From Elusimicrobiota bacterium (lineage in GTDB: Bacteria; Elusimicrobiota; Elusimicrobia; FEN-1173), in the NCBI GenBank assembly GCA_016722575.1, contig JADKIY010000001.1, forward strand, positions 704,810 to 768,809: 64,000 nt of DNA, written 5' to 3'. The notes under the pieces are model-generated. The model was not told where the DNA came from. It saw only the letters and a program-made list of their open reading frames with translations, and searched no databases. The position numbers and the translations under genes are program-made. Shown in pieces: positions 963 through 60,094 of this stretch. Every line of letters starts with the position of its first letter. Position 1 is the first letter of the stretch.

Positions 963-982
963 TTTACACAAGATTTACAATT
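963..982 (+). promoter_or_regulatory. Tandem TTTACA direct repeat (TTTACAcaagaTTTACAA) upstream of giant gene 1, followed about 30 nt later by TATCAT-TAGG
   Basis: Near-identical arrangement upstream of giant gene 2: TTTACAaaacaTTTACAA at 60032-60050, then about 30 nt, then TATACT-AAGG. The repeat spacing (11 nt) is the same in both. Confidence 0.35.
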
Positions 983-1215
983 CCCCAAGGGCGCGTTAAC
1001 CTCCCGAAATTATCATTAGGTTGTTCCTAAGATGTTTGCCGATTCCCCGGGAGGGACGCCTTGCACCGATTAATTGCCTCCGATTGCCAATGCGACGCCT
1101 GCCGCCAACGGCGCGTCGCCTATCTGTGGGTTCGCGGCGGCCGACGGGACCACCGGTCTCGGCCCCCCCACACCGAAACCTCGAAACGACCCCCCGAAAA
1201 AACCAAATTGCGCCA

Positions 1216-19200: not shown

Positions 19201-21474
19201 GGACTCGGGGGGGTCCGAGAATACGACGCCATCACTTGGATGAGCCGGTTCCTCTTTCCCCGGGGGGCCGAGGGGTTGGTCGGCCTTCTGTCGGGCTGGG
19301 CCGTTCTGGCGATTCAGCGTCGGGTGTCGCTCGGGCAACTGCTCCGGGCGCGGCAAGCGTTCCTTCGTCAAGCGCGCCTTCGGGACCGGCGCGTTGAATT
19401 CGAATCATTGACTCGCCCGGAGAAAATCCAATACGTCCAGGACGCCAGCCTCTTGTTCGACACGTTGGTGTCCCTTCAGCAGTCCTTCTGGCTCGAGGTG
19501 CGCCGACCCGAGGACCCGGAATATTTGCCCTTCTTTTTGGCCAGCGCGGGCTGGCGTCCGCCTTCGGCCACGACCGTCCAAGGGGCATTGGACGACGCGC
19601 TTTCGAAACGACAAGGCGGGGTGGTGGCCGTCGGGGCGCGGCGTTCCGGGGCCGACGGCATGGCCGAATTCTCCATCGAAGTCCTTCGGGACCGGCCCGG
19701 CGTTTTGGCCGTGCTTTCGGGCCTCATGGCGTCCCAGGGATTCAGCATCCGAGCGGCCGAGGCCCGATTTGAGCGGGGCCGGATCTTTGACCGGTTTTAC
19801 GTCCATCTCGGTTCCCTCGCCGCGGCGGACAAGAAAGTCCAGGACCGGGAAATCGCCCGTCTGGGTCAAACCGTGGAAAACGCGGCCGCCGATGTTTTGA
19901 GGGGCGAGCGGATCGACCTGGGGCGCGTGGCGGGGGAGTTCCGGGCCGCCGGCCGGGATTACCGCTTCGTCTTGCCGCGCAGTCGGCCGGTGGTCAAAAC
20001 CCTGGCTTACTTCTCCGGAGCGGCGGAGGCCCGGTCGCTCACGGTTTTAACCTCGGACCGGGTGCTGGGCGACGATGCGGGGGAGAAAGAATATCTCGGA
20101 ACCCTGCACGTCATCACCCGGTGGCTGGCGGAAAGGGGCCTCAACATCGTCGGGGATCCCAGCATCCGCACCCAGCGGGGCATCGTGATGGACACCTTCG
20201 GCCTGCGTCATTCGGACGGATCGTCCTTGACGGCCGCGGACGAGTCGACGGTGGAGGCGGTTCTCCAGCAATTCCTGGACCTCCCTGAAATCAGCGAAAG
20301 CGATTTCGGCCGGGACTCCGCGCTTCCCCCGATCCACGGCTCGGGGGAAGCCCCGGCGGGAATTCCGCTTCTTGGGGGGATGCCGAAGGCGACGCTCTTC
20401 GGGTGGAGCGCGCCCCTGTTGGCCGGGTTCCTCCCCGGCGGCCCCGCGTTCTTGCTCGTGGGGGGTATGGTTTTCTTGGCCGTTCACTGGTTCCAAAGCC
20501 GGGCCAAGACACGGGCGGAGAAGCCGGCGCCCGCGACGTCGCCCGTGGGGACGAGGCTTCTTTCCCGGGACCTGCTGAAGAGCGCTCTTTTGGGCGGTCC
20601 CGTCGGCCAAGTCATTGATTTCTCGCGGTACGACCTGGACGCGGCGTCCCTGCGCGCCGACGCCCTGGCCGGCCGCGCGGCGGCCCGGGACCGGCGGGAA
20701 CAGTTGGCCCGGGATTTGGGTTTGGAGCACGGCGCGTCCCTGGACGACATCGGTTATCGCCTGGGCCAACGGCACCGCGCGGGCCGGACGCCGTTGTCGC
20801 GGACGGAAGACCCCACCGCGCGGTTCGCCGACGAAATCGGCCTCTTGGCCCTCCTTTCCGACGGGTGGACCCGCGCCGGCGACCTGCCCGCCGACGCGTC
20901 TTCCGCCCTCGCCCAATACCACCGGGGCCAGGGACTCCTCGGCCTGCCCGCGCGCGTGACCGAGGCCTTGGCCGACGGCCGCCGTTTGGCCTTTGAAATT
21001 CCCACCGATCTGTTGCGTGGAAGAATCGCCGGGGAGCGGGACGCTTCGCTGGTCCGGGCTCTGGCCCTCGCGGCCGCGGCGTCCCCCGAGAACGAACGCT
21101 TGTCCTGGATCCTCCCCGCGGGAGTCGGTCGGGCGGAGCTGGACCGGTTCTTCGCCGAACGGCCCGAATTGGCCGCGCTTCAATCCCGGGGGAACGTGGT
21201 GGCGAAAGACAGCGCCCGCCTGGACGCCGCCGTCGGGCCCGCCTATTCCGTAAAGAGGCTGCTTCTGGAAGTCCAGGGCGTCAAAGACGAGTCCCGCTTG
21301 GCGGCCACGGACCTTTTCCTCTTGAACCGGGGCGAATGGAAGCTGGACTTGAGCGACGGCGCCAAGGGCTTGGTCAAGCTCTTGATCCTCTTGGCCGGCG
21401 ACGTGGTCTTCGACGCCACCGACCGCCTCGCCGACGACGTGAAGCGCCTGAACGTCGTTTCCACCAACGCCTAG
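1216..21474 (+). CDS. Giant multidomain secreted/membrane protein (about 6,750 aa). Domains in order: signal peptide, paralog-shared N-module, HD, GHKL-like, TM helices, GT5 glycogen-synthase-like, GT35-like glucan phosphorylase, alpha/beta-hydrolase, GlnD/GlnE-type nucleotidyltransferase, two ACT domains
   Basis: Single uninterrupted ORF with high GC3 throughout and a TAG stop at 21472-21474. The track start at TTG 1021 is unlikely because 1021-1215 is rich in A-ending codons. ATG 1216 and ATG 1237 (the latter with GGTGGAG upstream) are candidate starts; both give an Arg-rich then hydrophobic signal-like N-terminus. Recognisable motifs include HDIGK, KRGGLGD, AHDWQAA, RFEPSGLTE, WAGGLGPV, GHSLGAH and GSYGSRRPGLISDVDLHLLLP, plus two DRPG-type ACT signatures. 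Confidence 0.8.
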   Translation: MVEQPFPMRINGRSFSTALRRGARPVLGGALAAVYFLVNVPGVYAVESSFWSDRRERAGRRRSPDNPTLLAQLPSGARAPLGDAVLPPVAGRLSEESLGGAARLPAKTPASPALQRAFGWLPAVVAPYGDVRDVYLSPRPGAPTIIHLQDAHEIAEAQRNLAGLTTALKSARGLSLVGLEGAVGAFALDPYRRYPNADITRALADTFLGLGYLTGPEAAAVTGDKPPLLWGVEDAGLYRDNISAFENSERTRARVQALAAKLSAAADEARDRYYSPALRALDDHRRAYHERKEGLAAYAAYLWGLRKGSRTEFENTRLLREALQWEERLDFVQVENERRALVEGLSRRLPEDALAGLVRESLDYRAGRLSYGDYHRYLRRLCADHGLGLERYPQLSAYVSYVLLAERIDRDGLLQELVALEKSAESALAVSPEEKALVSVRRGLTLLDKLTTHGLTPAEWQSYLVERPRLLALPKTLSTLVPGRIAGADALTPETLDSFERFCSRALDRNGALIKNLLEKMRAEGASAAVLVAGGFHTAGLAQLCRQQGLSYAVVSPRLAKVPAETRPLDVFARSPLPLEKILAGDVIHLAYPRLGQAAGEGLAAQGAAAARQQTAQILWASFQEFLGGLATNFSEGDRDRFAEFARQFTAVSDLSADVLELGGGIRALAVRVTVSNGDKKELALLSAPDGRENVYDRFGAEPAFAGRVELPSGPLALRVYALSDVSGPGLIGRVVWWGDRTRGYWSAHARSLIQQLNFRLAGLSAPKKAVVETELSLEEAHGRAIAEVSARLGLRTRELEPIAHHMVRVRDLADHLARSLGTNAEDIALLRLAASAHDIGKFHEDCVEHVITPDIFPKDSPAFRALAEHEQLVFDVLGRQKLVLSAEVAMILRAHSALGAGAKESLDAVPGLTERHVRLALILSLADVSDGYRDMHRPYIQALVQKSGFPTLDQLRREFLKYAAKAAGSSYAGALPDAESVFARAAAEPWFAAATERTLIEHVAGLVEAATAGDPDAEKARRLSREISSHRIPALATPPDRWWSALVESLFVRGATGDQRAAVLESLLTTLQTETAAGRIDGGLGLAGLTAGLLPAGRSRPAAAREILLAREWTSEKALAKDIDATAQAVRELAAQYPAVAPAALSSLTSYALGETEGHGAWDGSPARLELSRRGNTLRLRIENDGGYPLPNRAPKNIRNRSFTPATAEPLIYSSRGVESGSGAGTAYIAVYFHQIYQAGLPDQLTSRARLAWTQRALGENRYRIALTVHLPLTSAATIRGGAIPAVAAFWEPKFVSLLGERWGRYFYRAVAGPTLEDLFGGLRNAESINSALLFPLLVGFLMNLGGDPVLGAFVPAFILFFNRLLFVARHPEGQRTEAGFVAALGGAGAFAVAWMGAFSPVAVALGFLAGWSFHVATNAVFNLPVLFQGKSKEPSAPAAPARTKIGLVLLMMGTLFLSPMYRGGGSALIDAAADRWAGLGIAAIGLLMLATSGNPFANAKRGIDRILTSSFAQGLSRRWTGLVRWIGRNKSPLLAAGFAAALGSLFGPSNPELMIAAAAATGTPLVRRSERRDLNIASVSVELAPPHGEVNRQIRGLMAFGHSILRRNAAGGWSAENHRGALSLTTRDGEDLSRDGVLNDFEIHLVGDGAFRYLHVWPWGAQEGHGGGLSTVGTLNPVKRVFIARGLWESDRERALTVLKHEATEVNLWWEHSLKLGDEKQIVSVDRKAEALAAVAAFRGRPRKKADALVAADAKLPTIREWIRANALGAVVALTNRFHNMANRRYRTEHPMDFIPLPNTLSGSVAMVSWEHRDFFKRGGLGDAISEASFNLAKLGQDVDLYMPMHKEMENKVPWVDTHLTVPVATAGERVVFHLFRTEIDVPTPGAGRLTVYALKDVTPRSGDTERWRLFQYGYNPPNDLRYYDYPLKESALGAKAVVEAMKLVSGDRRGRVRYRAVNAHDWQAALVPVLMKGDASFAGVGRILTVHNGAYMGNFRLKNDDGTDSYNQEFLRGLGLPAGYDRFGPGDPIEFHGQIVLQKAALLAAHKINPVSPQYRNELLSPDDYVLPGNTRDMAGVYRARQADLVGVMNGLDDDIWNPERDPAIADAPYAYTPFVARDVREKKPANKSNFQKALGLTVDRDAPMLYTCARLSEQKGFDFVADAMEGLLTEFPKAQFVLMGDSDNSEMGNDLARRFTDFMTRYPGRVWFGPFGGRGGWEHYMGAAADFVLSPSRFEPSGLTEKKGMRLGAVPIVRAVGGLQDTVVDPREDADNANGFKFIEPTGAAFGEAARRALRAYEAGHGQRLGDEPNIDLLQQNAMRTPKSWEDVAREYLGLYSAARDAAHDESTAEVAARRHAVPPAAPLIGHLPAGVDLGAIRLERGDEVRGALADLEEWMATVVSGPPPTLAGSRRGETIPQTLDMLRQELGALSSDADAGLFDADAFQRESAGRVLGFGFAETKTATGRARLGLSDEFFNPDSVLYPHRREALFHEAYHVVLGVADNSTIHRDALRIQAALFWGVPVEEAYALSLEQLEAHPKNALGRALRVRRLLRDFRGEDVNGLADLLGEKLENGQLIPFLTEADDALNAPLALSPTALERRTWERVDLMRRLEGQPPRGRGDLDPRFLEARRAEEDWSKPLIESGPVEAPQPLLKAIALLTTEQEDRLLNELSAAVAQDSALADRPIVDDIFLMTGRIPKGWAKLHGIAYQRVYHLSAEGRKVWAGGLGPVQVFHSDAERQITRDSAFDVVDIEPDYTHRRTAEGMVPAERARPSTPLKPSLEPPFDLEVKFQGRPVKIRVRPMRGPEGNPVYLFRDNPDGDAHFTKQLYDYRPSGDNPASWEEFTAFFGVATLAVIGRLEENRSKALGAQWRPPVLHGNDAQTAMAIVLLAEIVRGGNPRSEELVQSVPFLAKLAPLAARTFKTHTYGNRQGYTWGRPEDHYGVASYLSGIPEWDHQRLNFYFARRGPEAHGYPDVTAAAIAATPGHAQAVARKHGWDVMRKYDDPQSVVGITNGANLKWSAGLFWDYLDEVGHENADRLRPTAEQVRDAKRLAKERFFTDLLVHPQHVEEQFYRRFRFILNDPAKRGEPTPAVDPALLSQPTVGFVGRLVNEKFNMNRGWTTRNIEELVKAGYNVVLFAPIQQKSDPTSPSAAMARTLEALSGNLDREWRPGHGRLIYIDSRDSELKKSALASLDILVLDSDKDTEANGYTEVAASASGALVLSPPFHNGEGLIRGQGMPIDFSQPGHGNTLIPDNQKPESYVAVLKKALEVYQQRPMDFAAHQATSVRLSRVLEARLTAAASLRDFNLSYSLPLGVATDPLWFGGVSVAENQPANLEAWVRVRPGVDATHLDVRARLGEVPAGPAWGGEWSNGREIRLEPAGPAVTAADGTVALRFAKSVELPRGAYEFVVESRDRREPRYWVLQDGIRWGQNNRLLVGTPAPTGAPAGLLPLWRPVIQNFRFAGWSDRTTVRVLGVVEELFLMGAVTLLGRVLEMTLGLPSGVSLLLSAGTAVALFPLGHVGGVHFFEPSGRLKLYQATARDLTKLTILGAGLRTVHLGLALGLPWLLTALAGAPILGPPGAWIELAAQLLPFLAVPLLHGRYNANPPRGWPLGILSFQHALLAIRWGTTVSAGFFERFVPRQGVPVGDGYISNPRRTALIDRTVAALAGMADARLNGLNPLSLKGILDIVLKNVEQHGVPGADAQAAARIDGGDFLLEIRNETIAPLSPELNGEFSVGRSNPRVAVENRSPGTGYGIGVTRLPGLVRGLYDVGAADFAERARWSWTTDAATREVVFQLRAPLPPAPAAGKAHEFVSEWEIPGAVPEAPAPVPIWGLVGRRFVALTASVALFMSGLVSDSSRAWSHPVSPATREASAVPAGSDQPSALLSAGAMVVPLASRRRRNDFWHQVEAGKHPGWRLLRVPGANGETIEAAVKESGQGPLVVWNYGGGAGPVLNRQADWFANRPGVVVRRRDADAHVLVGQTAGDTVTVLEQIRSRGGPDWSDGGALVVGHSLGAHVATTVALRLQAMSPGAVRGVVLLNPPVPNGLWYSMLIGWLSFLKGVSETLDSWMEAARFSSASRRSLRQQESQWWGHFIENWIPSADDARTTADAPPAVPWALFNGWDHLLSESRALGNYLETTLAECLAELSRLPAPLLVVGSPHDPLWGEFAAFYRALHLREVGESDVLPETAARAPARLYVELSNGGQDVLAEHSPHMSARADRLNAILESFARAADGRGRAVGAIGHRVELDSIRWGPDGSLIFALQRPGGFPRDLPILSATPTRFSVKESIGRLRLRGGDRGTRSSADPLRPLADLLDQRRMSAPAVYRFEDSPFNLRGLAFAGTGLHNAALAIHQDLAQSQAIRDLAILHEFLEYLSAKGFLVYRYAAEEGLLRMSLKVPGTWSDFQRRWEIELPPAAAALAARGAERAHYFHRALTAAALNDLDGELTRTIRESVRRRLRVVSAANVGGRDRTLQPVVRRLRRNMESEHFIPLLAEWLLHTGIPRKDGSFNLLRMEFRAFPSGVVLERHGTLEELDLKSRGFQTVRSLRSGDVVVLPYLLSQLIDGYRQRVAETGKEPDDVHPNALLMDFLTALPAGVVLASVEMPSTLGQWGLEGAPLEGWLRNHALWDVPLWRFIHDTGWFDNVLPRAVPLDALDGDRLNLDNGTFLTLQVKRDSRLPSGGRAATGAVLSLASPKGGDGALSSLLTRRWTENVLRRWGFQPSDRSVRLVAALGVAWWYEFPRTLAATRLADFVYEHPGPRWIRVAGLAAVYATMGWAFLETLQFMTGQANLVRFVAATAAALLANPLGHFAWNLVFVWTGWELTRGSAVPALPIRAAGRSRSGWRVKTDLSELEFRNRNTAPETWTPIPLKAEDNGSSALPFLRRPYELFPRSPRREGPDAPSTSEVAYLRVVKALESLGALTPRLLSYDPAARFQTPGKSELFGLRAFSHWMQKSDGDLVGTPEGLSFVVLPAELFSDPAVAPADRREYLGTAVLIEAIKILRLAGRLTLTLERDERGPWLLLSVTNAQGRVETSRFLVYGEVARILSHHRDFHHLARALVAYWIPTAEKRLNDFLVARDLRGYVEISPAAATAAARPPAPWGRVAAALLVGAALSFGLPGTDFISTAAAATWTPASPVRWLDPSFVATALTLILLAAAATVEPLRAGLRRWPDRLAAAKDSILMMATSRGPPGGRGRGGNGKLGGEGPRVPAREKAELLFKFNGKIALARNAGDFETLREISNWVKGLSLRHDPDLEAAVQRLIAVHDSRRDYHWRRMIGNEEPAATIQDELKSLLLSRLGWSPSRPAPAETERRATVLSAEIFSRDPRNSRELDQWIGEAVRSLSRDLPANGGLEPAIPVVPSPWTGVATEIKSASGELLATIQKDENRNGWVRFYDASGRLRRMESRDPARPVVVVREVGPGGRLDTVIGGPRSAGGAPLSPVSLETDRLIEALANYHRWIADYASSLRRQGVSVEEATEAVESALRAGRYRLAELVVRSWLDLPGMYRRAVNGEESYPNEFQSPRFQGTFADFVRTVGERGAVHGLNSATLKENSDGSHYFVHELMPFTLLENSINYHFANMRNDLSPAGENERPVILFFDIEKLPPLSMKNPLEVKFREMVEAPLVALRPESRRVAESLVGPLEGSGATADVRRALDDAAGWAPTPGAGRAQRGYSLPIVLVGLSLGTLVALSVIPWIGIFPSLAAGLLSAIAVALAAENLLILPGIRYGPSRAAFETLRRAVAATQTIPEDDRALADLKKSFTEFKAAMKESAGGMPDASSYRAFMWAFSDGLDAVVREVFRRAARKHRLLNRTALMAHGSYGSRRPGLISDVDLHLLLPNDLAYPAPDNETGAAAEALYYGLEKVLSAQDPKPLKDYQHAGDVERAMAFWEPRSHEMGSLYTGVDALRVYGLNARPVAGNARLFEEGVRPGYRRLLSRNRREILRGVILEREAQFERADSSLLRPDFKAGLGGVREYDAITWMSRFLFPRGAEGLVGLLSGWAVLAIQRRVSLGQLLRARQAFLRQARLRDRRVEFESLTRPEKIQYVQDASLLFDTLVSLQQSFWLEVRRPEDPEYLPFFLASAGWRPPSATTVQGALDDALSKRQGGVVAVGARRSGADGMAEFSIEVLRDRPGVLAVLSGLMASQGFSIRAAEARFERGRIFDRFYVHLGSLAAADKKVQDREIARLGQTVENAAADVLRGERIDLGRVAGEFRAAGRDYRFVLPRSRPVVKTLAYFSGAAEARSLTVLTSDRVLGDDAGEKEYLGTLHVITRWLAERGLNIVGDPSIRTQRGIVMDTFGLRHSDGSSLTAADESTVEAVLQQFLDLPEISESDFGRDSALPPIHGSGEAPAGIPLLGGMPKATLFGWSAPLLAGFLPGGPAFLLVGGMVFLAVHWFQSRAKTRAEKPAPATSPVGTRLLSRDLLKSALLGGPVGQVIDFSRYDLDAASLRADALAGRAAARDRREQLARDLGLEHGASLDDIGYRLGQRHRAGRTPLSRTEDPTARFADEIGLLALLSDGWTRAGDLPADASSALAQYHRGQGLLGLPARVTEALADGRRLAFEIPTDLLRGRIAGERDASLVRALALAAAASPENERLSWILPAGVGRAELDRFFAERPELAALQSRGNVVAKDSARLDAAVGPAYSVKRLLLEVQGVKDESRLAATDLFLLNRGEWKLDLSDGAKGLVKLLILLAGDVVFDATDRLADDVKRLNVVSTNA

Positions 21475-21512
21475 TCCGGCCCGCCGTTGATTTTTTGTAT
21501 CGTGTCGGTCCC

Positions 21513-22679
21513 ATGACCGATCGAGCCCCCGGGTTTTTCGATCTGGAAACCACCGACGGCGCCGCCCGGGCCGGCCGCTTGACGCTGGCCCACGCGGCGG
21601 TGGAAACCCCGATCTTCATGCCGGTGGGAACCCAGGCCACGGTCAAAACCCTCTCCGCCGACGACCTCGAAACCCTGGGCTATTCCTTTATCCTCTCCAA
21701 CACCTACCACCTTTGGCTTCGTCCGGGGATCGACCTTCTGGAAAAATCCGGGGGGCTCCATTCCTTTATGTCCTGGAAGGGCGCGATCCTGACGGATTCC
21801 GGGGGATTCCAGGTGTTCTCCCTGGCCAACCGGCGCGACGTCTCGGAAGAGGGGGTCGCTTTTTCCTCCCACGTGGACGGCGCCCGCCACCGGTTGACGC
21901 CGGAAACCGTGGTGGACGCCCAGCTCCGGATGGGGGTGGACGTGGCCATGTGCCTGGACGAATGCCCGCCTTACCCCGTGGCCGAAGCCGACGCCCGGGA
22001 CATGATGGAACGCACCTTGCGTTGGACCGCCCGGGCCCGGGACCGCTGGGCGGCCGACGAGCGCCGGACAAAAACCCTCCTTTTTCCCATCGTTCAAGGG
22101 GCGACCTTCCCGGCCCTCCGCGCCGAAAGCGCGCGCCGTACCGTGGAAATGAATTTTCCGGGCTACGCCGTGGGCGGGTTGTCCGTGGGGGAACCCCGGG
22201 CGCTGTTGGGGGAAATGATCGAGGCGAGCGTCCGGGAGCTGCCGGCCGAAAAACCGCGCTATTTGATGGGGGTGGGCCGCCCCGAGGACGTCTTGACCGC
22301 CGTGGAGCGGGGCGTCGACATGTTCGATTGCGTCTGGCCCACGCGCAACGCCCGGAACGGCCAGGTCATGACCTGGGACGGGTCTTACAACGTTCGCGTG
22401 GCGGCCCTCCGGGAGGACGGCCGTCCCCTGGAGGCGAATTGCGCCTGCCCGGTCTGCCGGCGCTACTCCCGCCGGTACCTCGCCCATCTCTTCCGGGCGG
22501 GGGAAACCACGGCCCTCCGGCTCTTAACTTTACACAACTTGGCCTTTATGTTAGACTTCCTCCGTCAAATCCGACGGGCCATCGTCCGTCGAGAATTCAC
22601 CGAATTTAAACGCGCGTTTTTGGAGCGTCAATCCCGGGCCGATGGTGCGCCCGCCGGAAACTCCCAGGGGGTCTTGTGA
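21513..22679 (+). CDS. tgt: Queuine tRNA-ribosyltransferase
   Basis: Full-length similarity to Tgt (LETPIFMPVGTQATVK, DSGGFQ, zinc-binding CxCxxC ... H region). ATG at 21513 is the first in-frame start after the giant gene stop. Confidence 0.9.
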   Translation: MTDRAPGFFDLETTDGAARAGRLTLAHAAVETPIFMPVGTQATVKTLSADDLETLGYSFILSNTYHLWLRPGIDLLEKSGGLHSFMSWKGAILTDSGGFQVFSLANRRDVSEEGVAFSSHVDGARHRLTPETVVDAQLRMGVDVAMCLDECPPYPVAEADARDMMERTLRWTARARDRWAADERRTKTLLFPIVQGATFPALRAESARRTVEMNFPGYAVGGLSVGEPRALLGEMIEASVRELPAEKPRYLMGVGRPEDVLTAVERGVDMFDCVWPTRNARNGQVMTWDGSYNVRVAALREDGRPLEANCACPVCRRYSRRYLAHLFRAGETTALRLLTLHNLAFMLDFLRQIRRAIVRREFTEFKRAFLERQSRADGAPAGNSQGVL

Positions 22680-23065
22680 AACGAATTTCAAGTCTGCTTC
22701 TTCTATTGTCGGCGGCCGTGCCCGCCTGGGCCGACGGTCGTCCCGCCGGCGCGCCCAACGGGGGACTCATGATGATGGTCCCTTGGATCGCGATCCTGGG
22801 CGTCTTTTATTTCCTTCTGATCCGTCCCCAGCAAAAACAGGCCAAACAGCACCAGGCGCTCTTGGACAATTTGAAGCGCGGCGACCGCGTTCTCACCCAG
22901 GGCGGAATTTACGCCACCATCCAGTCCGTCAAAGGGAAAGTCCTGGAAGTGAAGTTGTCCGAAGACGTCAAGGTCCTTCTGTCGCGCAGCCACGTGGCCC
23001 AAGTGGTCCCCAACGACCCGGCCCAGGAAACCGAAACGACCGCCACCAACGGCGCCCATGCCTAA
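22676..23065 (+). CDS. yajC: Preprotein translocase subunit YajC
   Basis: YajC core (FLLIRPQQKQAKQHQALLDNLKRGDRVLTQGGIYATI). GTG start overlaps the tgt stop (GTGA). Confidence 0.85.
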   Translation: MKRISSLLLLLSAAVPAWADGRPAGAPNGGLMMMVPWIAILGVFYFLLIRPQQKQAKQHQALLDNLKRGDRVLTQGGIYATIQSVKGKVLEVKLSEDVKVLLSRSHVAQVVPNDPAQETETTATNGAHA

Positions 23066-24497
23066 GGCTTATTGGAAGTCCCTCGCCATCCTGGCGACGG
23101 TCCTGCTGTCGGGGTGGTACCTTTTCCCGTCCTACCGGTTTTACCGCCTTCCTCGGGAAAAACAACAAGAGTTGCGCGACCGCCGCAACCCCCTCCTCAA
23201 CCGCATTCTCAACCTCGGCCTGGACCTTCAAGGCGGGATTCACCTTCTTTTGGAACTGCAAACGGACAAATTGCCCGATGACACCCCGGAAACCCTGCGC
23301 GAAGCCATCGACCGCGCCATGGAGGTGGTCCGCAACCGCATCGACCAATACGGCCTTTCCGAGCCGTTGATCGTCCGCCAGGGCGACAAATGGATTGTCG
23401 TTCAACTGCCGGGCGTTAAAGACCGCGCGCAAGCCAAGGATCTGATCGGTCGGACGGCGCTCCTGGAATTCCGTTTGCTGGACTCCGACGACGTTCCCGA
23501 AGCCGTGATCAACAAAGCCCGGGAGATGGGCCTGACCGCCGCCCGGTTGCGCCCGGGGAAAATGCCCAAAGAGATCGCCGCCCTGCTTCCCGCCGGCACG
23601 GAGCTTCTCGCGGGCAAGGAATCCGCTTTTTACGTGGTGAAAGCCTCCGCCGCCTTGACGGGCGCCGGATTGGCCAACGCCCGGGTGGAAATGGGCGCCC
23701 ATGAATTTTCCGGCGCTTCGCCCCACGTGTCCCTGGAGTTCAATCCCGAAGGCGCCAAGCGCTTCGCGGATTTAACCGAAGCCAACGTGGGCCGCCGCCT
23801 GGCCATCGTCTTGGACGGCGTGGTGCAATCGGCCCCCTCCATCCGGTCCCGGATTCCGGACGGCCACGCCATCATCGAGGGGAATTTCTCCCCCGAAGAG
23901 GCCAAATTTTTGAAGTCGGTCCTTCAGGCGGGCGCGTTGCCGGCGCCGCTGGAAATCGTGGAGGAACGAACCGTCGGCGCCACCCTGGGCGACGACTCGG
24001 TGCGCGCCGGGGTTCTGGCGGGCGCCATCGGATTGGGCGCGATTTTCCTCTTCATGGCGATTTATTATCGTTGGTCGGGCATGTTGGCCAATCTCGCCCT
24101 GGTGCTCAACCTGGTGCTCCTCCTGGCCGCCATGGCGGCCCTTCACGCCACTTTGACCCTGCCCGGCATCGCCGGCATTATTTTGACCATCGGCATGGCG
24201 GTGGACGCCAACGTGCTTATTTTGGAGCGGATGCGGGAAGAGGTTCGCCTCGGGAAATCCCCCCGGATGGTGGTGGACCAGGGGTACGACAAGGCGTTTT
24301 CCGCCATCTTGGACGGCAATTTGACCACCATCATCGCGGCGGTCTTTATGTTTCAGTTCGGCACAGGCCCTGTCAAAGGGTTCGGCGTCAGCTTGATGTT
24401 GGGCCTCGCGGTGTCCATGTTCACGGCCATCGTCGTCACCCACACGGTTTACGACCTCTGGTTATCGCACCGCGACGTGCAGAAATTGAGCGTGTAA
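23058..24497 (+). CDS. secD: Protein translocase subunit SecD
   Basis: SecD/SecF RND-type membrane protein with an N-terminal TM helix, a periplasmic domain and six C-terminal TM helices. It sits in the conserved tgt-yajC-secD-secF order. Confidence 0.9.
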   Translation: MPKAYWKSLAILATVLLSGWYLFPSYRFYRLPREKQQELRDRRNPLLNRILNLGLDLQGGIHLLLELQTDKLPDDTPETLREAIDRAMEVVRNRIDQYGLSEPLIVRQGDKWIVVQLPGVKDRAQAKDLIGRTALLEFRLLDSDDVPEAVINKAREMGLTAARLRPGKMPKEIAALLPAGTELLAGKESAFYVVKASAALTGAGLANARVEMGAHEFSGASPHVSLEFNPEGAKRFADLTEANVGRRLAIVLDGVVQSAPSIRSRIPDGHAIIEGNFSPEEAKFLKSVLQAGALPAPLEIVEERTVGATLGDDSVRAGVLAGAIGLGAIFLFMAIYYRWSGMLANLALVLNLVLLLAAMAALHATLTLPGIAGIILTIGMAVDANVLILERMREEVRLGKSPRMVVDQGYDKAFSAILDGNLTTIIAAVFMFQFGTGPVKGFGVSLMLGLAVSMFTAIVVTHTVYDLWLSHRDVQKLSV

Positions 24498-25450
24498 TGG
24501 AATTTTTTAAAACCCCCAATTTCGACTACATCAAATACCACAAGCTGTTTTTCGGCTTGTCGGGCCTCCTGGCCGCCGCCACGGTGGCGGGCCTGGTGGT
24601 TCGCGGTCCCTCCCTCCTGAGCATCGATTTCACGGGGGGAACGTTGGTCCAAGGGTATTTTCAAAAAGCGGGCGACGCCGCCGGGGCCGACGCCCAAGGC
24701 GCGGAAATTTCCCTGGACCGCGTTCGGGCCGCCCTCGCCACCGCCGGCCTCAACGGCGCCGAACTTCAGAACGTGCCCAACCACAACGCCATCATTCTCC
24801 GATTCAAATCGAACGCCGGCGAAGCCAAGACCGAACTGGTCGGCAAAGTCACCGAGGCCTTCGCCCGGGCCTTTGAGGGATACGCCTTCGTGACCGAGCG
24901 CGCCGAGTTCGTGGGCCCCGTGGTCGGTCGACAAATGGTGTCCAAAGCCGTGTTGGCCGTCTTCTTTTCCATGTTGGGGATCGTGGTGTACGTCGCTTTC
25001 CGTTTTCGAAACTGGATCTGGGGCGCGGCGGGCGTGTTCGCCCTCGTGCACGACGTCTTCCTGGCTTTGGGGTTCATGGCCCTCACGGGCCGGGAAGTCT
25101 CCATCACGGTGGTCGCGGCCCTGCTCACTTTGGCCGGCTATTCCATCAACGACACGATCGTCATTTTTGACCGTATCCGGGAAAACATCCGCCTGCGCGG
25201 GCGTCATTCCAAGGAGCCTCTGGACGCGCTGATCAACCGCTCCTGCAACGAAACCCTCTCGAGGACCATCATCACCTCGTTGACCGTGTTCATCGTGCTT
25301 CTCTCCCTGCTTTTCCTGGGCGGCGAAGTGATTCGGGATTTTTCCCTGGCGTTGACCTTCGGCGTGATCGTGGGCTCCTACTCCACGATCTTCATCGCCA
25401 CTCCGATGGTTTATCTCTGGCAACGCAAACGCAGCAAGCCCCTCCACTGA
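24497..25450 (+). CDS. secF: Protein translocase subunit SecF
   Basis: SecF-like membrane protein. ATG overlaps the secD stop (TAATG). Confidence 0.88.
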   Translation: MEFFKTPNFDYIKYHKLFFGLSGLLAAATVAGLVVRGPSLLSIDFTGGTLVQGYFQKAGDAAGADAQGAEISLDRVRAALATAGLNGAELQNVPNHNAIILRFKSNAGEAKTELVGKVTEAFARAFEGYAFVTERAEFVGPVVGRQMVSKAVLAVFFSMLGIVVYVAFRFRNWIWGAAGVFALVHDVFLALGFMALTGREVSITVVAALLTLAGYSINDTIVIFDRIRENIRLRGRHSKEPLDALINRSCNETLSRTIITSLTVFIVLLSLLFLGGEVIRDFSLALTFGVIVGSYSTIFIATPMVYLWQRKRSKPLH

Positions 25451-26112: not shown

Positions 26113-26874
26113 GTGTTGCTCCTCGGTCACAGACGACCGGTATGCTCCCTCGTCGCGCCTTGCCCAGGGCCAAAATCCTCTCGGCAAAACGCTCAATTTA
26201 TTTTGACTCAAGCCCCAAACGAATCCCGCTCCCGTCGCGACCGGTTTTGGCCCTGGGTCGTCTCCTGGTTGGGGTGGCTGATTCTCCAATTCATTGGACG
26301 CACCTCCCGAATGGTGGTCCGTTGGTCCCCCGCCGCCCAATCGCTTCGAGAAAGTTCCCGCCCGATGATTTTTGCCTTCTGGCATCGTTACCAGTTGCTG
26401 ATGGCCTGGGAACACCGGGGCCGGGGCGTGACCGTGCTGGTCAGCCGCAGCCGGGACGGGGAATTCATCGCCGGGGTTCTGGAGCGCCTGGGATATCGGA
26501 CGGCGCGGGGGTCTTCCAGCCGGGGCGGGCCCGCGGCGTTTATGGAATTGCTGGACGTCGTGAACGCGGGCGGCCGGGTGGCCTTCACCCCCGACGGACC
26601 CCGGGGGCCCGCGCGGTCCATTCAGCCGGGCGTGTTGGCCCTGGCGGCCAAAACCGGGGTTCCCATCGTCCCCGTGGCCTGGGCCGGGACGCCGGTCAAA
26701 ACCCTTTCCAGCTGGGACCGATTCATGATCCCCCTGCCTTTCGGGCGGTTCCACGTGGTTTTCGGCGATCCCCTGATCGTGACGGCGGCCGATGGTGCGG
26801 CGGAGGAAAATTTGCGTCGGGCTCTAAATCAAGCCGAAGCCGACGCGGGTGAAGAACGGGAGACCGCGTGTTGA
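26113..26874 (+). CDS. DUF374-family protein (lysophospholipid-acyltransferase-like), of the kind often found next to Kdo transferase
   Basis: Conserved block FAFWHRYQLL...SRSRDGEF...GYRTARGSSSRGG...VAFTPDGPRGP typical of DUF374. Lies immediately upstream of and overlapping waaA. The start is uncertain and may be downstream of 26113. Confidence 0.65.
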   Translation: MLLLGHRRPVCSLVAPCPGPKSSRQNAQFILTQAPNESRSRRDRFWPWVVSWLGWLILQFIGRTSRMVVRWSPAAQSLRESSRPMIFAFWHRYQLLMAWEHRGRGVTVLVSRSRDGEFIAGVLERLGYRTARGSSSRGGPAAFMELLDVVNAGGRVAFTPDGPRGPARSIQPGVLALAAKTGVPIVPVAWAGTPVKTLSSWDRFMIPLPFGRFHVVFGDPLIVTAADGAAEENLRRALNQAEADAGEERETAC

Positions 26875-28166
26875 GCCTCTATTCCTTCCTAACGCTCCTA
26901 CTGTCGCCCCTGATCCTTCTCGTGTTTGTTTGGCGTTACGGCCTTCGACGAACCCTTCGGGGTCTTCCCGAACGCATGGGGTGGGGGCGGGGCGACGGCT
27001 CCCAAAAGCCGACCCTCTGGATTCACGCGGCTTCGGTGGGGGAAGTTCGTGCGGCGGAGGCGTTTTTGCGCGCGGCCCCGGTCCGGTTCCCCGGCCTGGC
27101 GCGCCTGCTCACGACCACCACGGTGAACGCCAAAGAGTTGGCGGAACGGCTGGACCTGGCGGAGTTCGTGCGGCTGGCGCCCGTGGACCGCCCCGGGCCC
27201 CTGGCGCGCTTTGTTAAACGTTGGGCCCCCCGCGCGCTGGTTCTCGTTGAAACCGAACTCTGGCCCCACTGGCTGAAGGGCCTGTCGGAGAAAAATGTCC
27301 CGGTGTGCGTGATCAACGGGCGGATGTCCGATGGGGCTTTCCCGCTTTACTACCGGGTGCGGTCCTTTTGGGAACCCTTGATGGCGAGCCTGTCGCGGGT
27401 GGGCGTTCAAAGCCCCACGAACGCCTCGCGCTTCCTCCAACTGGGGGCCTTCCCGGACGCCGTGGCCATCACCGGAAATCTTAAATTCGACGTGCCGCTG
27501 CCGGACCCGGCGCGGCGCGCGGCCCTGCGCGCCCTCTACAAAGTCGAGGGCGACGCCCCGGTGTGGGTGGCCGGAAGCACCCACGACAGCGAAGAGGAAA
27601 TTTTACTCGGGGCCTTCCTTCGCCTTCGACGGGAGGGCGTCCCCCTTCGCCTGGTCCTGGCGCCCCGCCACGTGGAGCGGGCGGCCGAGGTTCGCCGCTA
27701 CGCCGAGAACACGGGGTTTCGCGCCGCGCTTCGGACTCGCTTGTCCGGGGAAGAGGCGCCCTGGGACATCTTGGTTTTGGACACCGTCGGGGAATTGGCC
27801 GACCTTTACGGGGTGGCGACCGTGGCCTACGTGGGGGGGAGCTTAATACCGCGGGGGGGCCAAAACCCTCTGGAGCCCGCGCGCTGGGGCGTTCCCGTCC
27901 TTTTCGGCCCCCACATGTCGAATTTTAAAGAAATGGCCAAGGGGTTTGAAGAACGGTCCGCGGCGATCCGCGTGACGGACGCCGAATCCCTGTTGACGGC
28001 GTTGCGGGAATTGATCGTTTCGCCGGCCAAACGGGCCGCGTTGGGCGACGCCGCTCGGGCCTTTGCCGACGCTCAGCGCGGAGCCCTGGAAGCGAATTTG
28101 ACCCTCGTGGCCGAGGCGCTGGCGTCGGGCCCGCGTCGCCCCCGAGGCACCTGCGGCGGATGTTAA
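26868..28166 (+). CDS. waaA: 3-deoxy-D-manno-octulosonic acid (Kdo) transferase
   Basis: N-terminal TM helix and the WIHAASVGE signature. GT30 family length. GTG start overlaps the upstream stop. Confidence 0.88.
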   Translation: MLSLYSFLTLLLSPLILLVFVWRYGLRRTLRGLPERMGWGRGDGSQKPTLWIHAASVGEVRAAEAFLRAAPVRFPGLARLLTTTTVNAKELAERLDLAEFVRLAPVDRPGPLARFVKRWAPRALVLVETELWPHWLKGLSEKNVPVCVINGRMSDGAFPLYYRVRSFWEPLMASLSRVGVQSPTNASRFLQLGAFPDAVAITGNLKFDVPLPDPARRAALRALYKVEGDAPVWVAGSTHDSEEEILLGAFLRLRREGVPLRLVLAPRHVERAAEVRRYAENTGFRAALRTRLSGEEAPWDILVLDTVGELADLYGVATVAYVGGSLIPRGGQNPLEPARWGVPVLFGPHMSNFKEMAKGFEERSAAIRVTDAESLLTALRELIVSPAKRAALGDAARAFADAQRGALEANLTLVAEALASGPRRPRGTCGGC

Positions 28167-29185
28167 CCCGGTCCGCTCTCGTTGTCCGCTTGTCGTCCCT
28201 CGGGGACGTGCTTCTCACGATCCCGGTGTTTGAAAATCTTCGCCGGGCGTGGCCCGAGGCGCGGCTCACCCTCCTGGTTAAAAAAGCCTTCGCCCCCGCC
28301 CTGGCCGGCCATCCCGCCGTCGATGAATTGTTGATTTTTGAGGATTTGGGGTTTTGGGGCGTTCTCCGCGAAATCCGTCGCCGACGGTTCGATGCGCTGA
28401 TCGATTTGCACGACACGCCCCGCTCGAGGCTTTGGACCGCGCTGTCAAAGGCCGGTCGCGTGGTTCGTTATCGGAAACGCGCGTGGGCTCGGCGCCGTCT
28501 GGTTTGGTTCAAACGGCCGTCGGCGGAGTTGGCCGGGAAAACGGTCGACCGCTATTTGGAAACCCTGGCGGACCTCGGGGTCGAGGTGAGGGACCGGGTG
28601 CCTCGATTGCCCTCGCCCCCGGACGCGCTTCCGGCCCCCGCGACGACGGTCGCTCCGGGCCCCTGGATCGTCGTGGCGCCCGGCGCGTTGCACGCCACGA
28701 AACGTTGGCCCTCGGACCGCTTCGCCGCGGCCGCCGATCGCCTGGCGGAAGAGTTTCGCGCCGCGGGCGGGCCACCGCCCACGGTGGTCGTCGTCGGGTC
28801 CGCCTCGGACGGTCCGGCGGCCGAAGAGGTGTTGGAAACCCTTCAGGGACCGGCCCTTAATTTGACGGGCCGAACCTCGTTGAGGGAATTGATGGCCCTC
28901 CTTTCCCGCGCGGCGGTCCTTTTGTGCAACGATTCGGGCGCCATGCACCTGGGCGCGGCCCTGGGCGTTCCCACCGTGGCCGTGTTCGGGCCCACGGTCG
29001 AAGCCTTCGGCTTTTTTCCCTCCGGCGAAAAAACCGCCGTGGTTCAAAACGGGGGGTTGAATTGCCGACCCTGCGCCCTTCACGGCGGACGCCGATGTCC
29101 CCAAAAACATTTCCGGTGCATGACCGACGTGACGGTGGACCGCGTGGTGGGGGAAGCCCGACGGCTCCTCCGGGGGGCATCTTGA
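28160..29185 (+). CDS. LPS heptosyltransferase (GT9 family)
   Basis: N-terminus MLTRSALVVRLSSLGDVLL is the typical GT9 start. ATG overlaps the waaA stop. Confidence 0.85.
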   Translation: MLTRSALVVRLSSLGDVLLTIPVFENLRRAWPEARLTLLVKKAFAPALAGHPAVDELLIFEDLGFWGVLREIRRRRFDALIDLHDTPRSRLWTALSKAGRVVRYRKRAWARRRLVWFKRPSAELAGKTVDRYLETLADLGVEVRDRVPRLPSPPDALPAPATTVAPGPWIVVAPGALHATKRWPSDRFAAAADRLAEEFRAAGGPPPTVVVVGSASDGPAAEEVLETLQGPALNLTGRTSLRELMALLSRAAVLLCNDSGAMHLGAALGVPTVAVFGPTVEAFGFFPSGEKTAVVQNGGLNCRPCALHGGRRCPQKHFRCMTDVTVDRVVGEARRLLRGAS

Positions 29186-30231
29186 AGATCCTTCATGTTT
29201 TGGATGAGCGATGGGATTCGGGTTTGACCGCCTACGGCTTGGGCGCGGCCCGGGCCCTGCGGGACCGGGGCCACGCCCTGTGGATCGCCGCTTGTCCCGG
29301 GAGCCCGGCGGACCGGACCGCTCGGGCGGAGGGTTTTTCAACGGTGTCGCCGTCCCTCCTCGCCCTTCGGCGCTCCGTGGTCCAAAATCAAATCGACATC
29401 CTGAACGCCCACACCGGATCCGGGCACAGCCGGGGATTTCTGGCGACCCGTGGAACGCCGGCGGCCTTGGTCCGCACCCGGGCCGAGGCTCGGCGGTTGT
29501 CCCCGCGCCCCGGGCAGGGGTTTTTGTTCCGACGGACCGACGCGGTGGTGGCGGCTTCGCGCGCCTTGGGCGAGGCGTACGCGGCGGCGTACCCCTTTTT
29601 GAGGGAACGAACGCGGGTGATTTTTCCCGGCGTGCCTCTTTCCCCGGCGAGGCCGGAGCCTCCGGCGCCTTGGCGGGTGGCCTTGGTGGGCCGGCTGGAT
29701 CCGGTCAAGGGCCACGACTATTTTCTGGAAGCGGTGGAGCGTTTGCGGGACCATTTCTCTGCCGCGGAGTTTTGGATCGCCGGCGAGGACAAAAACCTGT
29801 CCCGGGCCGACTTGGAAAAGGACGCGGCGCGCCGGGGGGTCGCCGACCGGGTTCGGTTCGCGGGCCGGCTTCCGGACGCGGCGTCTTTTATGCGTTCCTG
29901 CCACCTGGGCGTCGTCTGTTCCGTGGGGAGCGAGGCGGTGTCCCGGGTGGCCCTCGAATGGTTGGCCCAGGGTCGGCCGGTCGTGGCCACGGCGGTCGGC
30001 GCCCTGCCGGAACTGGTGGAGGACGGACAGAACGGGCGCTTGGTCCCGCCCCGGGACGGGACCGCCCTGGCGGAGGCGATCGGAAGCCTGTTGAACGATC
30101 CCGAGGCCCGGCGCCGGATGGGCGCGGAAGCCCGGCGTCGCGCGGAGAATCAATTTTCTTTTTCCCGTTTGGGGGAAGAAACCGAGGAAGTTTACGGGCA
30201 GGCCCTGGGACGACGCCGGAGGTCCGCGTGA
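29181..30231 (+). CDS. Glycosyltransferase family 4 (GT4)
   Basis: Starts with the KILHVL motif and has a GT4 C-terminal region (EAVSRVALEWLAQGRPVVATAVGALPELV). TTG start at 29181 overlaps the upstream TGA (TTGA). The longer track ORF from 28924 would overlap the GT9 gene. Confidence 0.8.
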
Positions 30232-31328
30232 GTTTTCGAATCCTTCACGTGAACACGGAAAGGGGCTGGCGGGGGGGCGAGCGTCAAACCCTGTGGCTCG
30301 CCCGGGAGTTGGAACGGCGGGGGCATGGGAACGTGGTGGCGGCGCGGCCCAAAGGCCCGCTGGCGCGGGCCGCCGCGGAAGCGGGCCTCCGGGTCTTTCC
30401 CCTCGCTCCTTGGTCGGAATGGGATTTTCGGTCCGCCGGCCGCCTTCGGGCCTTTCTGCGCCAAGAAAACATTCAAGTGGTGCACGCCCACACGGGTCAC
30501 GCCGTCGGTTTCGGGGCTTTGGCGCGGCGGGGGACCACGGCCCGTCTGGTGGCGACCCGCCGGGTGGATTTCCCCTTAAAAAATAATTTTCTCAGCCGTT
30601 GGAAATACCGCTCCGTGGACGCCCTGGCGGCCATTTCCACCGCGGTGCGCCGCGTGGTGATCGAAGGCGGCGTGCCCGAATCGAAGATTTCGGTCATCCC
30701 CAGCGGCGTGGACCCCGCCGCCCATCCCTCCGTGGCCGACCGGAATCGGTTTCGCTCTGAGCGCGGGTTCACGCCCGCGGACCGCTTGGTCGTGCACGTG
30801 GGCGCCCTGGTGCCGCACAAGGACCAGGCGACCCTGCTCCGGGCTTTTGCCCTTCTCCGGGCCCGGGGAGCGGCCGATCGATTGCTGATCCTGGGCGACG
30901 GCCCCCGGCGGGAGGAACTGGAACGGTTGACCGCCGCTCTTCGATTGGAGGACGCCGTCTCTTTCCTCGGGCACCGCGGCGACGTGTTAGAATATACGGC
31001 CATGGCGGATCTTTTCGTTTTCCCATCGGTGGACGAAGGCCTGGGGACGGCCCTGTTGGACGCGCTCGTGTTGGGCGTGCCCACGGCCGCCACGGCCGCG
31101 GGCGGGATCCCGGACCTTTACGGCGGCCCCGGGGCCCCGGAACTGACGCCCCCGGGGGACGTCGAATCCCTGGCGCGCAACATGGCCGCCGTTTTGGAAA
31201 ACCCGGAGGAAGCCCGCCGCCGCGCGGAACGCGGGCGGGAGCGGGCCCGGGGTTTCTCGGTGTCCGCCATGACGGACCGTTACGAAGCGTTGTACCAAAA
31301 ACTGTTGGAGGCCCCGTGCCCCGCTTGA
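30228..31328 (+). CDS. Glycosyltransferase family 4 (GT4)
   Basis: RILHVNTERGWRGGE N-terminus and the EGLGTALLDALVLGVPTAATAAGGIPD GT4 motif. GTG start overlaps the previous stop (GTGA). Confidence 0.8.
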   Translation: MSFRILHVNTERGWRGGERQTLWLARELERRGHGNVVAARPKGPLARAAAEAGLRVFPLAPWSEWDFRSAGRLRAFLRQENIQVVHAHTGHAVGFGALARRGTTARLVATRRVDFPLKNNFLSRWKYRSVDALAAISTAVRRVVIEGGVPESKISVIPSGVDPAAHPSVADRNRFRSERGFTPADRLVVHVGALVPHKDQATLLRAFALLRARGAADRLLILGDGPRREELERLTAALRLEDAVSFLGHRGDVLEYTAMADLFVFPSVDEGLGTALLDALVLGVPTAATAAGGIPDLYGGPGAPELTPPGDVESLARNMAAVLENPEEARRRAERGRERARGFSVSAMTDRYEALYQKLLEAPCPA

Positions 31329-32065
31329 GCGCCATTTTGATCGCCCGCAACGAAGAGCGCGACCTTCCCGCCTGCCTGGAAAGCCTGCGGGGCGTGGCCG
31401 ACGAGATCGTTCTGGTCGACAGCCATTCCACCGACCGCACCCGGGACATCGCCCGCGAGCACGGCGCCCGGGTCATTGAGCGGGATTTCGCGGGGTTCGG
31501 CCCCCAAAAACAATACGCCCTGGAACAAGCCGCCGGGGACTGGGTGCTCAACATCGACGCCGATGAGCGATTGACGCCGGAGTTGGCCGACGACATTCGG
31601 CGGGCCCTGGCGTCTTCGCCCACGGTCAACGGATACGAATTGCCGTTTCAGGTTTACTTCCTGGGTCGGCGTCTGCGTTTCGGCGGCTGTTTCCGGGAGT
31701 TCCATCTTCGGCTTTTTCGCCGGGACAAAGCCCATTACGCCGGGGCCGAAATTCACGAGGGCATCTCGGTGCCGGGCCCCTGGGGGCGGCTGGCCCACCC
31801 CGTGCGCCACGAAAGTTACCGAAATTTTCAGGAATATCTGGAGAAATGCGCCCGGTACACGGGCTTGATCGCCCGCAAAAAATACGCCGAGGGCCGCCGG
31901 TTCGCTGTTTGGCAGCACCTTCGCCTGCCCTGGGAGTTCCTGGTCCGCTACGTTTTAAAGGGCGGGTTCCTGGACGGCAACGCCGGGCTGATATACGCCG
32001 TTCTCAGCTCCTATTACGCCTGGTTGAAGCACGTCCGACTTTTGGACGGGGGGGGGAAGGCGTGA
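31316..32065 (+). CDS. Glycosyltransferase family 2 (GT2)
   Basis: LSAILIARNEERDLPACLESL...VLVDSHSTDRT...NIDADE, with the typical GT2 DxD region. GTG start. Confidence 0.8.
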   Translation: MPRLSAILIARNEERDLPACLESLRGVADEIVLVDSHSTDRTRDIAREHGARVIERDFAGFGPQKQYALEQAAGDWVLNIDADERLTPELADDIRRALASSPTVNGYELPFQVYFLGRRLRFGGCFREFHLRLFRRDKAHYAGAEIHEGISVPGPWGRLAHPVRHESYRNFQEYLEKCARYTGLIARKKYAEGRRFAVWQHLRLPWEFLVRYVLKGGFLDGNAGLIYAVLSSYYAWLKHVRLLDGGGKA

Positions 32066-32865: not shown

Positions 32866-32870
32866 TCCCC

Positions 32871-35778: not shown

Positions 35779-35819
35779 GACGGCGCCAATGAACCCGTCG
35801 GCCCCGAATGATATGATCC

Positions 35820-36971: not shown

Positions 36972-36987
36972 ACAACGGAGTACGCCC

Positions 36988-60031: not shown

Positions 60032-60050
60032 TTTACAAAACATTTACAAA
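60032..60050 (+). promoter_or_regulatory. Tandem TTTACA direct repeat (TTTACAaaacaTTTACAA) upstream of giant gene 2, then TATACT-AAGG 9 nt before the ATG
   Basis: Same motif, repeat spacing and downstream TATnnT-[T/A]AGG box as upstream of giant gene 1. Confidence 0.35.
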
Positions 60051-60094
60051 CCCTTCCCCGGTTCTTTCCCCCGGACCTTCTATACTAAGGCTCT

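Follow-up and report, generated by a model that had tools for sequence, protein, structure and literature searches.

The two giant genes of the window, as we call the whole 64-kb stretch of DNA analysed here, and nearly all of their relatives in other Elusimicrobia are preceded by one promoter module of about 55 bp, in which four hexamers about 11 bp apart (consensus KTTACA, KTTACA, TTAAGG and TTAAGG, with K standing for G or T) are followed by a -10 box TAnAnT. The module has a fixed geometry, is conserved and specific, and is followed by start codons at characteristic positions. We think it probable, with moderate confidence, that upstream of each giant gene this unit combines phased repeats with an activator-dependent -10 box of the sigma-70 type, and that the genes so equipped form one regulon. 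What we infer from the module is that it activates rather than represses, which protein family supplies the regulator, and the nature of the signal; the argument for activation comes from two features, the way the repeats are oriented and the lack of a -35 box.

Results

Two rare elements upstream of the giant genes

A tandem pair of TTTACA hexamers followed by a TAT box had been placed upstream of both giant genes in the initial annotation, and a readout of the sequence confirmed the coordinates of the pairs and of the boxes. Together with the features located by alignment of related sites, the two regions read as follows.

963-968, forward strand: gene 1 R1, TTTACA, at about -60 to -55 when counted from the predicted transcription start
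974-980, forward strand: gene 1 R2, TTTACA plus A, 11 bp past R1
985-990, forward strand: gene 1 putative R3, CCAAGG, degenerate against the family consensus TTAAGG (alignment of 63 sites)
996-1001, forward strand: gene 1 putative R4, TTAACC (family consensus TTAAGG), with 9 nt between its end and the -10 box
1011-1016, forward strand: gene 1 putative -10 box, TATCAT, 48 bp from the start of R1, with TAGG next to it
near 1023, forward strand: gene 1 predicted transcription start, from the -10 box
1023-1215, forward strand: gene 1 predicted untranslated leader, about 190 nt, from third-position GC and the homologue alignment
1216-21474, forward strand: giant gene 1, 6752 aa, with the family motif behind an N-terminal signal or membrane segment
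60032-60037, forward strand: gene 2 R1, TTTACA (sequence readout and pattern search)
60043-60049, forward strand: gene 2 R2, TTTACA plus A (sequence readout and pattern search)
60054-60059, forward strand: gene 2 putative R3, TTCCCC, degenerate, the leading TT alone being kept (site alignment)
60065-60070, forward strand: gene 2 putative R4, TTTCCC, degenerate, the leading TT being kept (site alignment)
60081-60086, forward strand: gene 2 putative -10 box, TATACT, 49 bp from the start of R1, with AAGG next to it
60095-64000, forward strand: giant gene 2, running beyond the end of the window, with its ATG 8 nt after the -10 box

The window has a GC content of about 66%, and AT-rich hexamers are conspicuous against it. 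The element TTTACANNNNNTTTACAA (TTTACA-N5-TTTACAA) has exactly two matches in the 64 kb when both strands are searched with up to two mismatches, at 963-980 and 60032-60049; 0.11 matches are expected in the shuffled window, and none of 100 shuffles gave two. The hexamer TTTACA occurs nine times in the window, four of these occurrences belonging to the two giant-gene sites. With a position weight matrix derived from 63 related sites, the two sites score 33.1 and 34.0 bits, and the next-best match in the window reaches 15.8 bits at 46989, where an ordinary TTGAAA-N17-TATTGT promoter is found. The identity of the hexamers, their one-turn spacing and their distance to the TAT box, which the initial annotation had described as conserved, are thus borne out by the 11-bp spacing, by the gap of 31 nt (gene 1) or 32 nt (gene 2) between the second hexamer and the TAT box, and by these scores. 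It had also reported nothing similar upstream of the housekeeping genes of the window, and this agrees with what we find, since their promoters are of the canonical kind, with a -35 box, a 17-bp spacer and a -10 box.

54736: housekeeping-type promoter, TTGACA-17-TAAACT
46989: housekeeping-type promoter, TTGAAA-17-TATTGT
22529-22557: promoter TTTACA-17-TAGACT with TG extension, at the end of tgt

In the last of these, one TTTACA on its own takes the role of an ordinary -35 box, and therefore TTTACA alone is not specific to the giant genes.

The giant genes and their genomic setting

Giant proteins 1 and 2 are paralogues, 29% identical across the N-terminal 700 aa. Both carry, after the signal or membrane segment, the family motif A-x-E-x-x-F-W-x-(D/E)-R-R, which also occurs in nine homologues from the database, among them several with the label Elusimicrobia. 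Gene 1 starts at ATG 1216, where the alignment with the homologues begins. An upstream TTG at 1021, the earliest possible start, was considered and was ruled out by this alignment and by the GC content at third codon positions, which is 0.58 in 1021-1215 and 0.75-0.81 in the coding part of the gene. With the start at 1216 and not at 1021, gene 1 encodes 6752 aa behind a leader of about 190 nt. Pfam identifies in its product an HD phosphohydrolase domain (aa 804-929) and a starch/glycogen-synthase-like pair of GT5 and GT1 domains (aa 1807-2299); further stretches are alpha/beta-hydrolase-like and of the GlnD nucleotidyltransferase type, and a Pfam search of the remaining protein gave no match.

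The window comes from an Elusimicrobia chromosome, and its genes follow in the order queA, giant gene 1, tgt, secD secF, a lipopolysaccharide-core cluster, kdsB pyrG, a type II/IV secretion ATPase, mdh, coaX and, further on, polA, fpg, coaE and giant gene 2, which comes directly after coaE. Giant gene 1 (1216-21474) lies between queA (7-951) and tgt (21336-22679), with secD secF at 23058-25450. In E. coli, queA-tgt-yajC-secDF is a conserved operon, and giant gene 1 therefore looks like an insertion into this cluster. The lipopolysaccharide-core cluster occupies about 12 kb (26868-39296) and encodes a Kdo transferase, two family 9 heptosyltransferases, several family 4 and family 2 glycosyltransferases, a polysaccharide deacetylase, a lipid A acyltransferase and an O-antigen ligase.

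A module of four phased repeats and a -10 box

We aligned 63 related sites on the first repeat, the columns of the two KTTACA hexamers having served for the selection of the sites. Counted from the start of R1, the module comprises R1 (KTTACA, 0-5), R2 (KTTACA followed by A, 11-17), R3 (TTAAGG, 22-27) and R4 (TTAAGG-like with a C before it, 33-38), all of them in direct orientation on the strand of the gene. The TTA cores are spaced by 11, 10 and 11 bp, of which the R1-R2 spacing was set by the design of the search and the others were not. Conservation is clear in columns outside the selection, namely A17, T19, the -10 box, R3 (T22 in 56 of the 63 sites, T23 in 61, A25 in 54, G27 in 46) and R4 (C32 in 37, T33 in 53, T34 in 55), the A at +17 being present in 52/63. 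A TAnnnT hexamer stands at +48/+49 in 56/63 sites, with far weaker signals in control windows. The distance from the end of R4 to this box is 9-10 bp, the array spans about -60 to -22, and the DNA flanking the motif holds no information content in the alignment.

As judged from the alignment, the TTTACA pair is separated from the TAT box by two additional degenerate repeats that the initial annotation had missed, and the module reads as four phased repeats, not two. The alignment supports the TATnnT box as the -10 element of both giant-gene promoters. Its earlier description as TATnnT-[T/A]AGG holds for the TAT part, the -10 box of 56/63 sites, and fails for the trailing [T/A]AGG, which is found at 4 of 60 related sites and was rejected as a part of the motif.

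Promoter scans found no TTGACA-like -35 box 16-18 bp upstream of the -10 box at either window site; the TTTACA hexamers precede it by 31-32 and 42-43 bp, not at the spacing of a -35 box. An extended -10 (TG) is not conserved among the 63 aligned sites. A canonical sigma-70 promoter with a 16-18 bp spacer is thus absent at both sites, though each has the TAnnnT of a -10 box. The possibility that R3 or R4 serves as the -10 box for R1 or R2 was discarded, as TAnnnT occurs there in just 12/63 and 20/63 sites, respectively.

Several variations on the module were observed. R3 and R4 together read TTAA-N7-TTAA in 25/63 sites. One locus (L004) has two tandem arrays, at 2827 and 2857, 30 bp apart, and in several loci an additional, weaker repeat precedes R1 by 11 bp. 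A sigma-54-like TGGC-N7-TTGC occurs upstream of R1 in 6/63 sites, all from three related genomes, at a control frequency of about 0.5%, and is absent upstream of both window genes.

17-18 nt upstream of R1: sigma-54-like element in L033, L035, L037 and L050
35-41 nt upstream of R1: sigma-54-like element in L059 and L068

This element suggests that those six loci have a further promoter, whose transcripts would run through the repeat array, and regulation can be more complex there.

Start codons, leaders and predicted leaderless transcripts

Start codons were analysed in 93 loci, and in 79 of them an in-frame ATG follows the -10 box. Between the end of the box and this ATG there are 5-12 nt in 31 of the 79, with a peak at 6 nt (13 loci). 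The usual transcription start is the seventh nucleotide after a -10 box. An ATG at that very nucleotide points to leaderless mRNAs, and the clustering of start codons just after the TAT box argues that the box is a real -10 element with transcription starting there. These distances imply that about a third of the family genes would be transcribed into leaderless mRNAs.

In gene 2 the gap is 8 nt, borderline for a leaderless mRNA (about 7 nt), and its transcript is predicted to begin near 60093-60095 and to be leaderless or nearly so. The AAGG of gene 2 would consequently lie outside the transcript, upstream of the predicted start, and the trailing [T/A]AGG was dismissed as a ribosome-binding site as well. 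Gene 1, with a gap of 199 nt, is not leaderless. Its predicted leader folds no better than shuffled sequences (z = 0.07). Rfam gave no family at gathering score in the window and none at E <= 1 around gene 1, and no tRNA gene was found in the window. A 13-codon open reading frame (MFADSPGGTPCTD, 1032-1073) lies in the predicted leader, in another frame than the giant gene.

The positions of boxes and start codons bear on a different assignment of the hexamers, in which a dedicated alternative sigma factor of the TcdR/BotR kind would read TTTACA as -35 and CTTAAG as -10, with R1/R3 and R2/R4 forming two overlapping promoters 11 bp apart. TcdR/BotR promoters have TTTACA at -35 and GTTATA at -10 (PMC4597214; PMC3610760), and these group 5 sigma factors drive very large secreted proteins, the clostridial toxins; the gaps from R1 to R3 and from R2 to R4 are both 16 bp. 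It leaves unexplained, however, the canonical TAnAnT fixed at +48/+49 in 56/63 sites and the start codons clustered 6 nt after it. The module has no GTTATA: the hexamer 16 bp downstream is TTAAGG/CTTAAG, and CCAAGG or TTCCCC in the window, and CTTAAG and GTTATA share three of six bases. Unlike in the clostridial promoters, TTTACA is doubled in helical phase and a canonical -10 box follows 31-32 bp downstream; gene 2 has lost R3 and R4 and kept the TAT box, and TTTACA already acts as an ordinary -35 with a 17-bp spacer at 22529. A dedicated sigma factor is, on this evidence, distinctly unlikely.

Conservation in Elusimicrobia and specificity for the giant-gene family

When an alignment of the family N-termini was scanned against one genome per species, 79 loci were recovered from 22 Elusimicrobia assemblies of 37-68% GC, with up to nine paralogues from one genome; assemblies with many paralogues include JADKCG01, JAKLIF01, JANQER01, CAYZXT01 and JADJZR01. 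KTTACA-N5-KTTACA is found once per locus, on the strand of the gene and directly upstream of it, in 65 of the 72 loci with upstream DNA (about 90%) and in 21 assemblies. Conservation upstream of related giant genes had been named beforehand as a point on which the proposal could fall, and it withstood this comparison. Of the seven family loci without the element, two carry TTGACT, a -35-like hexamer.

A scan of about 593 kb on both strands with the weight matrix showed that all matches of at least 20 bits lie directly upstream of a family gene and on the same strand, including a second, divergent family gene in one locus. The latter (L062) has two divergent family genes with an array each, at 1997 (minus strand) and 2751 (plus strand). 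The other outcome that could have overturned the proposal, a motif scattered over random intergenic sites, is not what these 593 kb show.

The family N-termini are 25-51% identical and the flanks of the motif are uninformative, which argues that its conservation reflects selection and not recent duplication. We therefore regard as highly improbable that the similarity is an unselected leftover of duplication, or else an element acting at the RNA level within the leader. The two giant genes are indeed paralogues, and at six related loci the sigma-54-like promoter would transcribe through the array; yet the motif positions alone are conserved, and not the flanks, across genomes of 37-68% GC, an ATG 6 nt after the -10 box puts the array outside the mRNA, and neither an Rfam match nor unusual folding was found.

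Other genes behind the module and look-alike elements

Metagenomes were scanned with the pattern TTACA-N6-TTACA-N5-TTAAG-N6-TTAA, which leaves the -10 box and the downstream gene unspecified, and at least 120 loci were recovered. Among the matches listed, TAnnnT stands at +48/+49 in 43/59 KTTACA-type sites, compared with 2/46 sites of the ATTACA type, and a family gene lies downstream in 31 of the 46 KTTACA-type sites that have at least 600 nt of downstream sequence. The remaining KTTACA-type sites precede a second family of large secreted proteins without a Pfam match (L085, L095, L122), a secreted protein of 132 aa in seven near-identical contigs (L114/L134/L138/L158/L169/L183/L189), a methylthiotransferase-like gene and a methyltransferase gene. 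A variant site with CTTACA as second repeat (L100) is located upstream of a 340-aa protein, whose homologues immediately precede family genes in L059, L068 and L019. The module thus mainly serves the giant-gene family and is not exclusive to it.

The 46 ATTACA-type metagenome sites were set aside as a different system. They include a separate conserved element, ATTACA-N5-ATTACAAAT-N2-TTAAGA-N5-TTAAGG, which lies on contigs of 60-64% GC (L083, L088, L096, L108, L112, L121, L126, L143 and about 40 more metagenome loci) and has no -10 box at +48. It stands in reverse orientation upstream of an operon for a membrane-fusion protein and ABC efflux, and in some loci an OmpR-type regulator gene is found about 6.3 kb away.

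Discussion

Relation to known regulator sites

The array consists of direct repeats with 10-11 bp spacing and T-rich half-sites of the TTTACA type, the properties of OmpR/PhoB-type sites, and phased direct repeats at -60 to -22 joined to a -10 box correspond to the classic layout of promoters that depend on a response regulator of this family. The closest parallel is B. subtilis PhoP, which binds four TT(A/T/C)ACA repeats with 11-bp periodicity (PMC11870197). Its promoters likewise combine four direct repeats of 11-bp period with a housekeeping-type -10 box in the absence of a normal -35 box, and its consensus fits R1 and R2 exactly; the pstS site of Lacticaseibacillus, tttacacaatctttaca (PMC11870197), is nearly identical to TTTACAcaagaTTTACA of gene 1. 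The module differs from the PhoP sites in that R3 and R4 are TTAAGG rather than TTWACA, in its targets, which are giant secreted multi-enzyme proteins and not phosphate-acquisition genes, and in coming from another phylum without a linked PhoP orthologue. The E. coli Pho box is positioned 10 bp upstream of the -10 box (PMC1906773) and, similarly, consists of tandem direct repeats of 11-bp period that replace the -35 box, but the half-site is there of the CTGTCAT type, as opposed to KTTACA/TTAAGG here, and the module always has four repeats.

Single parts of the module recur elsewhere. KdpE binds TTTATA-N5-TTTACA (PMC3264566), WalR binds TGTWAH-N5-TGTWAH (PMC4168254), the WalR/VicR site being the reverse complement of KTTACA-N5-KTTACA, and CtrA binds TTAA-N7-TTAA (PMC9437464), which equals R3-R4 in the 25 sites mentioned above. 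These are single half-site pairs at variable positions, whereas the module fuses two different pairs in a fixed register with the -10 box; they also belong to other lineages and control other genes. The CpxR site, which we take to be GTAAA-N5-GTAAA, presumably resembles the repeats too; a search for the CpxR consensus gave nothing and we have kept it out of the evidence.

A specific version of the activator reading would make the module the operator of a Pho regulon and the giant genes induced by phosphate starvation through a PhoP/PhoB orthologue. The layout is that of B. subtilis, with four TTWACA-like repeats of 11-bp periodicity on the coding strand (PMC11870197), and 9-10 bp separate the end of the array from the -10 box, the -35 box being replaced, as in E. 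coli (PMC1906773). The SphR box of cyanobacteria, CTTAACCT (PMC1906773), is similar to R4 of gene 1 (GTTAACCT), and the metagenome pattern retrieved a real pstS promoter array, that of a pstS gene (L124, 421-1398, minus strand) whose upstream repeats are ATTACA, TTTACA, TTAAGA, TTAAAT, TTAACC and TTTACA. By its sequence the latter reads as a Pho box array of the Firmicute type. This lone pstS match lies, however, in an unrelated contig of 40% GC and begins with an ATTACA repeat, while no phosphate-acquisition gene (pstS, phoA, phoU) was found behind the KTTACA-type sites among the metagenome matches listed (at least 120 loci) or in the flanks of the loci. Sites of this type are, moreover, common to many OmpR-family regulators, and we judge the Pho version to be fairly unlikely.

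Activation or repression

The same array could be an operator for repression or silencing, with a protein coating -60 to -22 and holding most paralogues off so that, for example, one or a few giant genes are on. It overlaps the core promoter, it is shared by many paralogues of a genome, and OmpR-family proteins do repress from such positions, as CBO0786 binds the -10 region of the botulinum neurotoxin promoters (PMC3610760). A promoter with no -35 box and no extended -10 would nevertheless be weak unaided, with little to repress. In B. subtilis, PhoP repeats at -60 to -20 distinguish activated promoters, where they are on the coding strand, from repressed ones, which have them on the other strand; the repeats of the module lie on the coding strand, as in the activated class. 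We consider repression unlikely and retain an activator-dependent promoter as the preferred reading.

A proposed mechanism for the giant-gene promoters

We propose that an unlinked winged-helix activator, probably a response regulator of the OmpR/PhoB family, would bind the repeats head to tail, with one dimer on R1-R2 and a second dimer of the same activator on R3-R4. The proximal pair of repeats would take the place of the -35 box and recruit RNA polymerase, and transcription would begin about 7 nt beyond the -10 box. For many family members this start would coincide with the A of the ATG and yield a leaderless mRNA, a situation to which gene 2 would come close, and gene 1 would instead have a leader of about 190 nt. 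As R3 and R4 (TTAAGG) differ from R1 and R2 (KTTACA), two different proteins could bind. A point that speaks against the proposal is that gene 2 has almost lost R3 and R4.

A linked regulator was rejected, as no OmpR-type gene adjoins the family genes: none is encoded in the 64-kb window or in the flanks of loci L003-L081, and the surroundings of the genome loci, to a distance of about 3 kb, contain no full-length OmpR-type gene, stand-alone receiver domains being present near a few sites. Nearly all paralogues, up to nine or more per genome, carry the module, and from this we infer that a single regulon comprises the giant-gene family together with a few further secreted proteins. The suggestion of the initial annotation, that a dedicated transcription-factor site or promoter architecture co-regulates the giant-gene family, gains support from the conservation in 65/72 loci and from the restriction of matches of at least 20 bits to family genes in about 593 kb.

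A more far-reaching version, which we put forward tentatively as a possibility, is a dedicated regulon in a lineage of Elusimicrobia, in which one regulator acting on a four-repeat leaderless promoter would control a whole arsenal of secreted multi-enzyme proteins of 5,000-7,000 aa together with accessory proteins. If this were true, much of the coding capacity would be taken up by the genes of the regulon. The regulator might then represent a new subfamily, or a second factor that recognises the TTAAGG pair might work with it, and it might select which paralogues are expressed.

Significance for the Elusimicrobia

Elusimicrobia are rich in huge proteins and giant genes (PMC11573180). Our literature search found no paper that describes a shared promoter or regulon of these genes. 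The mechanism is of a well-known kind; the regulon promoter for giant genes is genuine, and no description of it was found in the papers that could be searched. To our knowledge, none of these giant-gene Elusimicrobia is in culture. The module defines a regulon in an uncultured lineage, and a matrix scan with it can list the whole regulon in any genome. It also constitutes a concrete probe to find the regulator among the handful of response regulators of each genome, and the predicted leaderless transcription of 20-kb genes can be checked in metatranscriptomes. The regulator and its signal would give the first functional handle on why these bacteria keep up to nine or more 20-kb genes.
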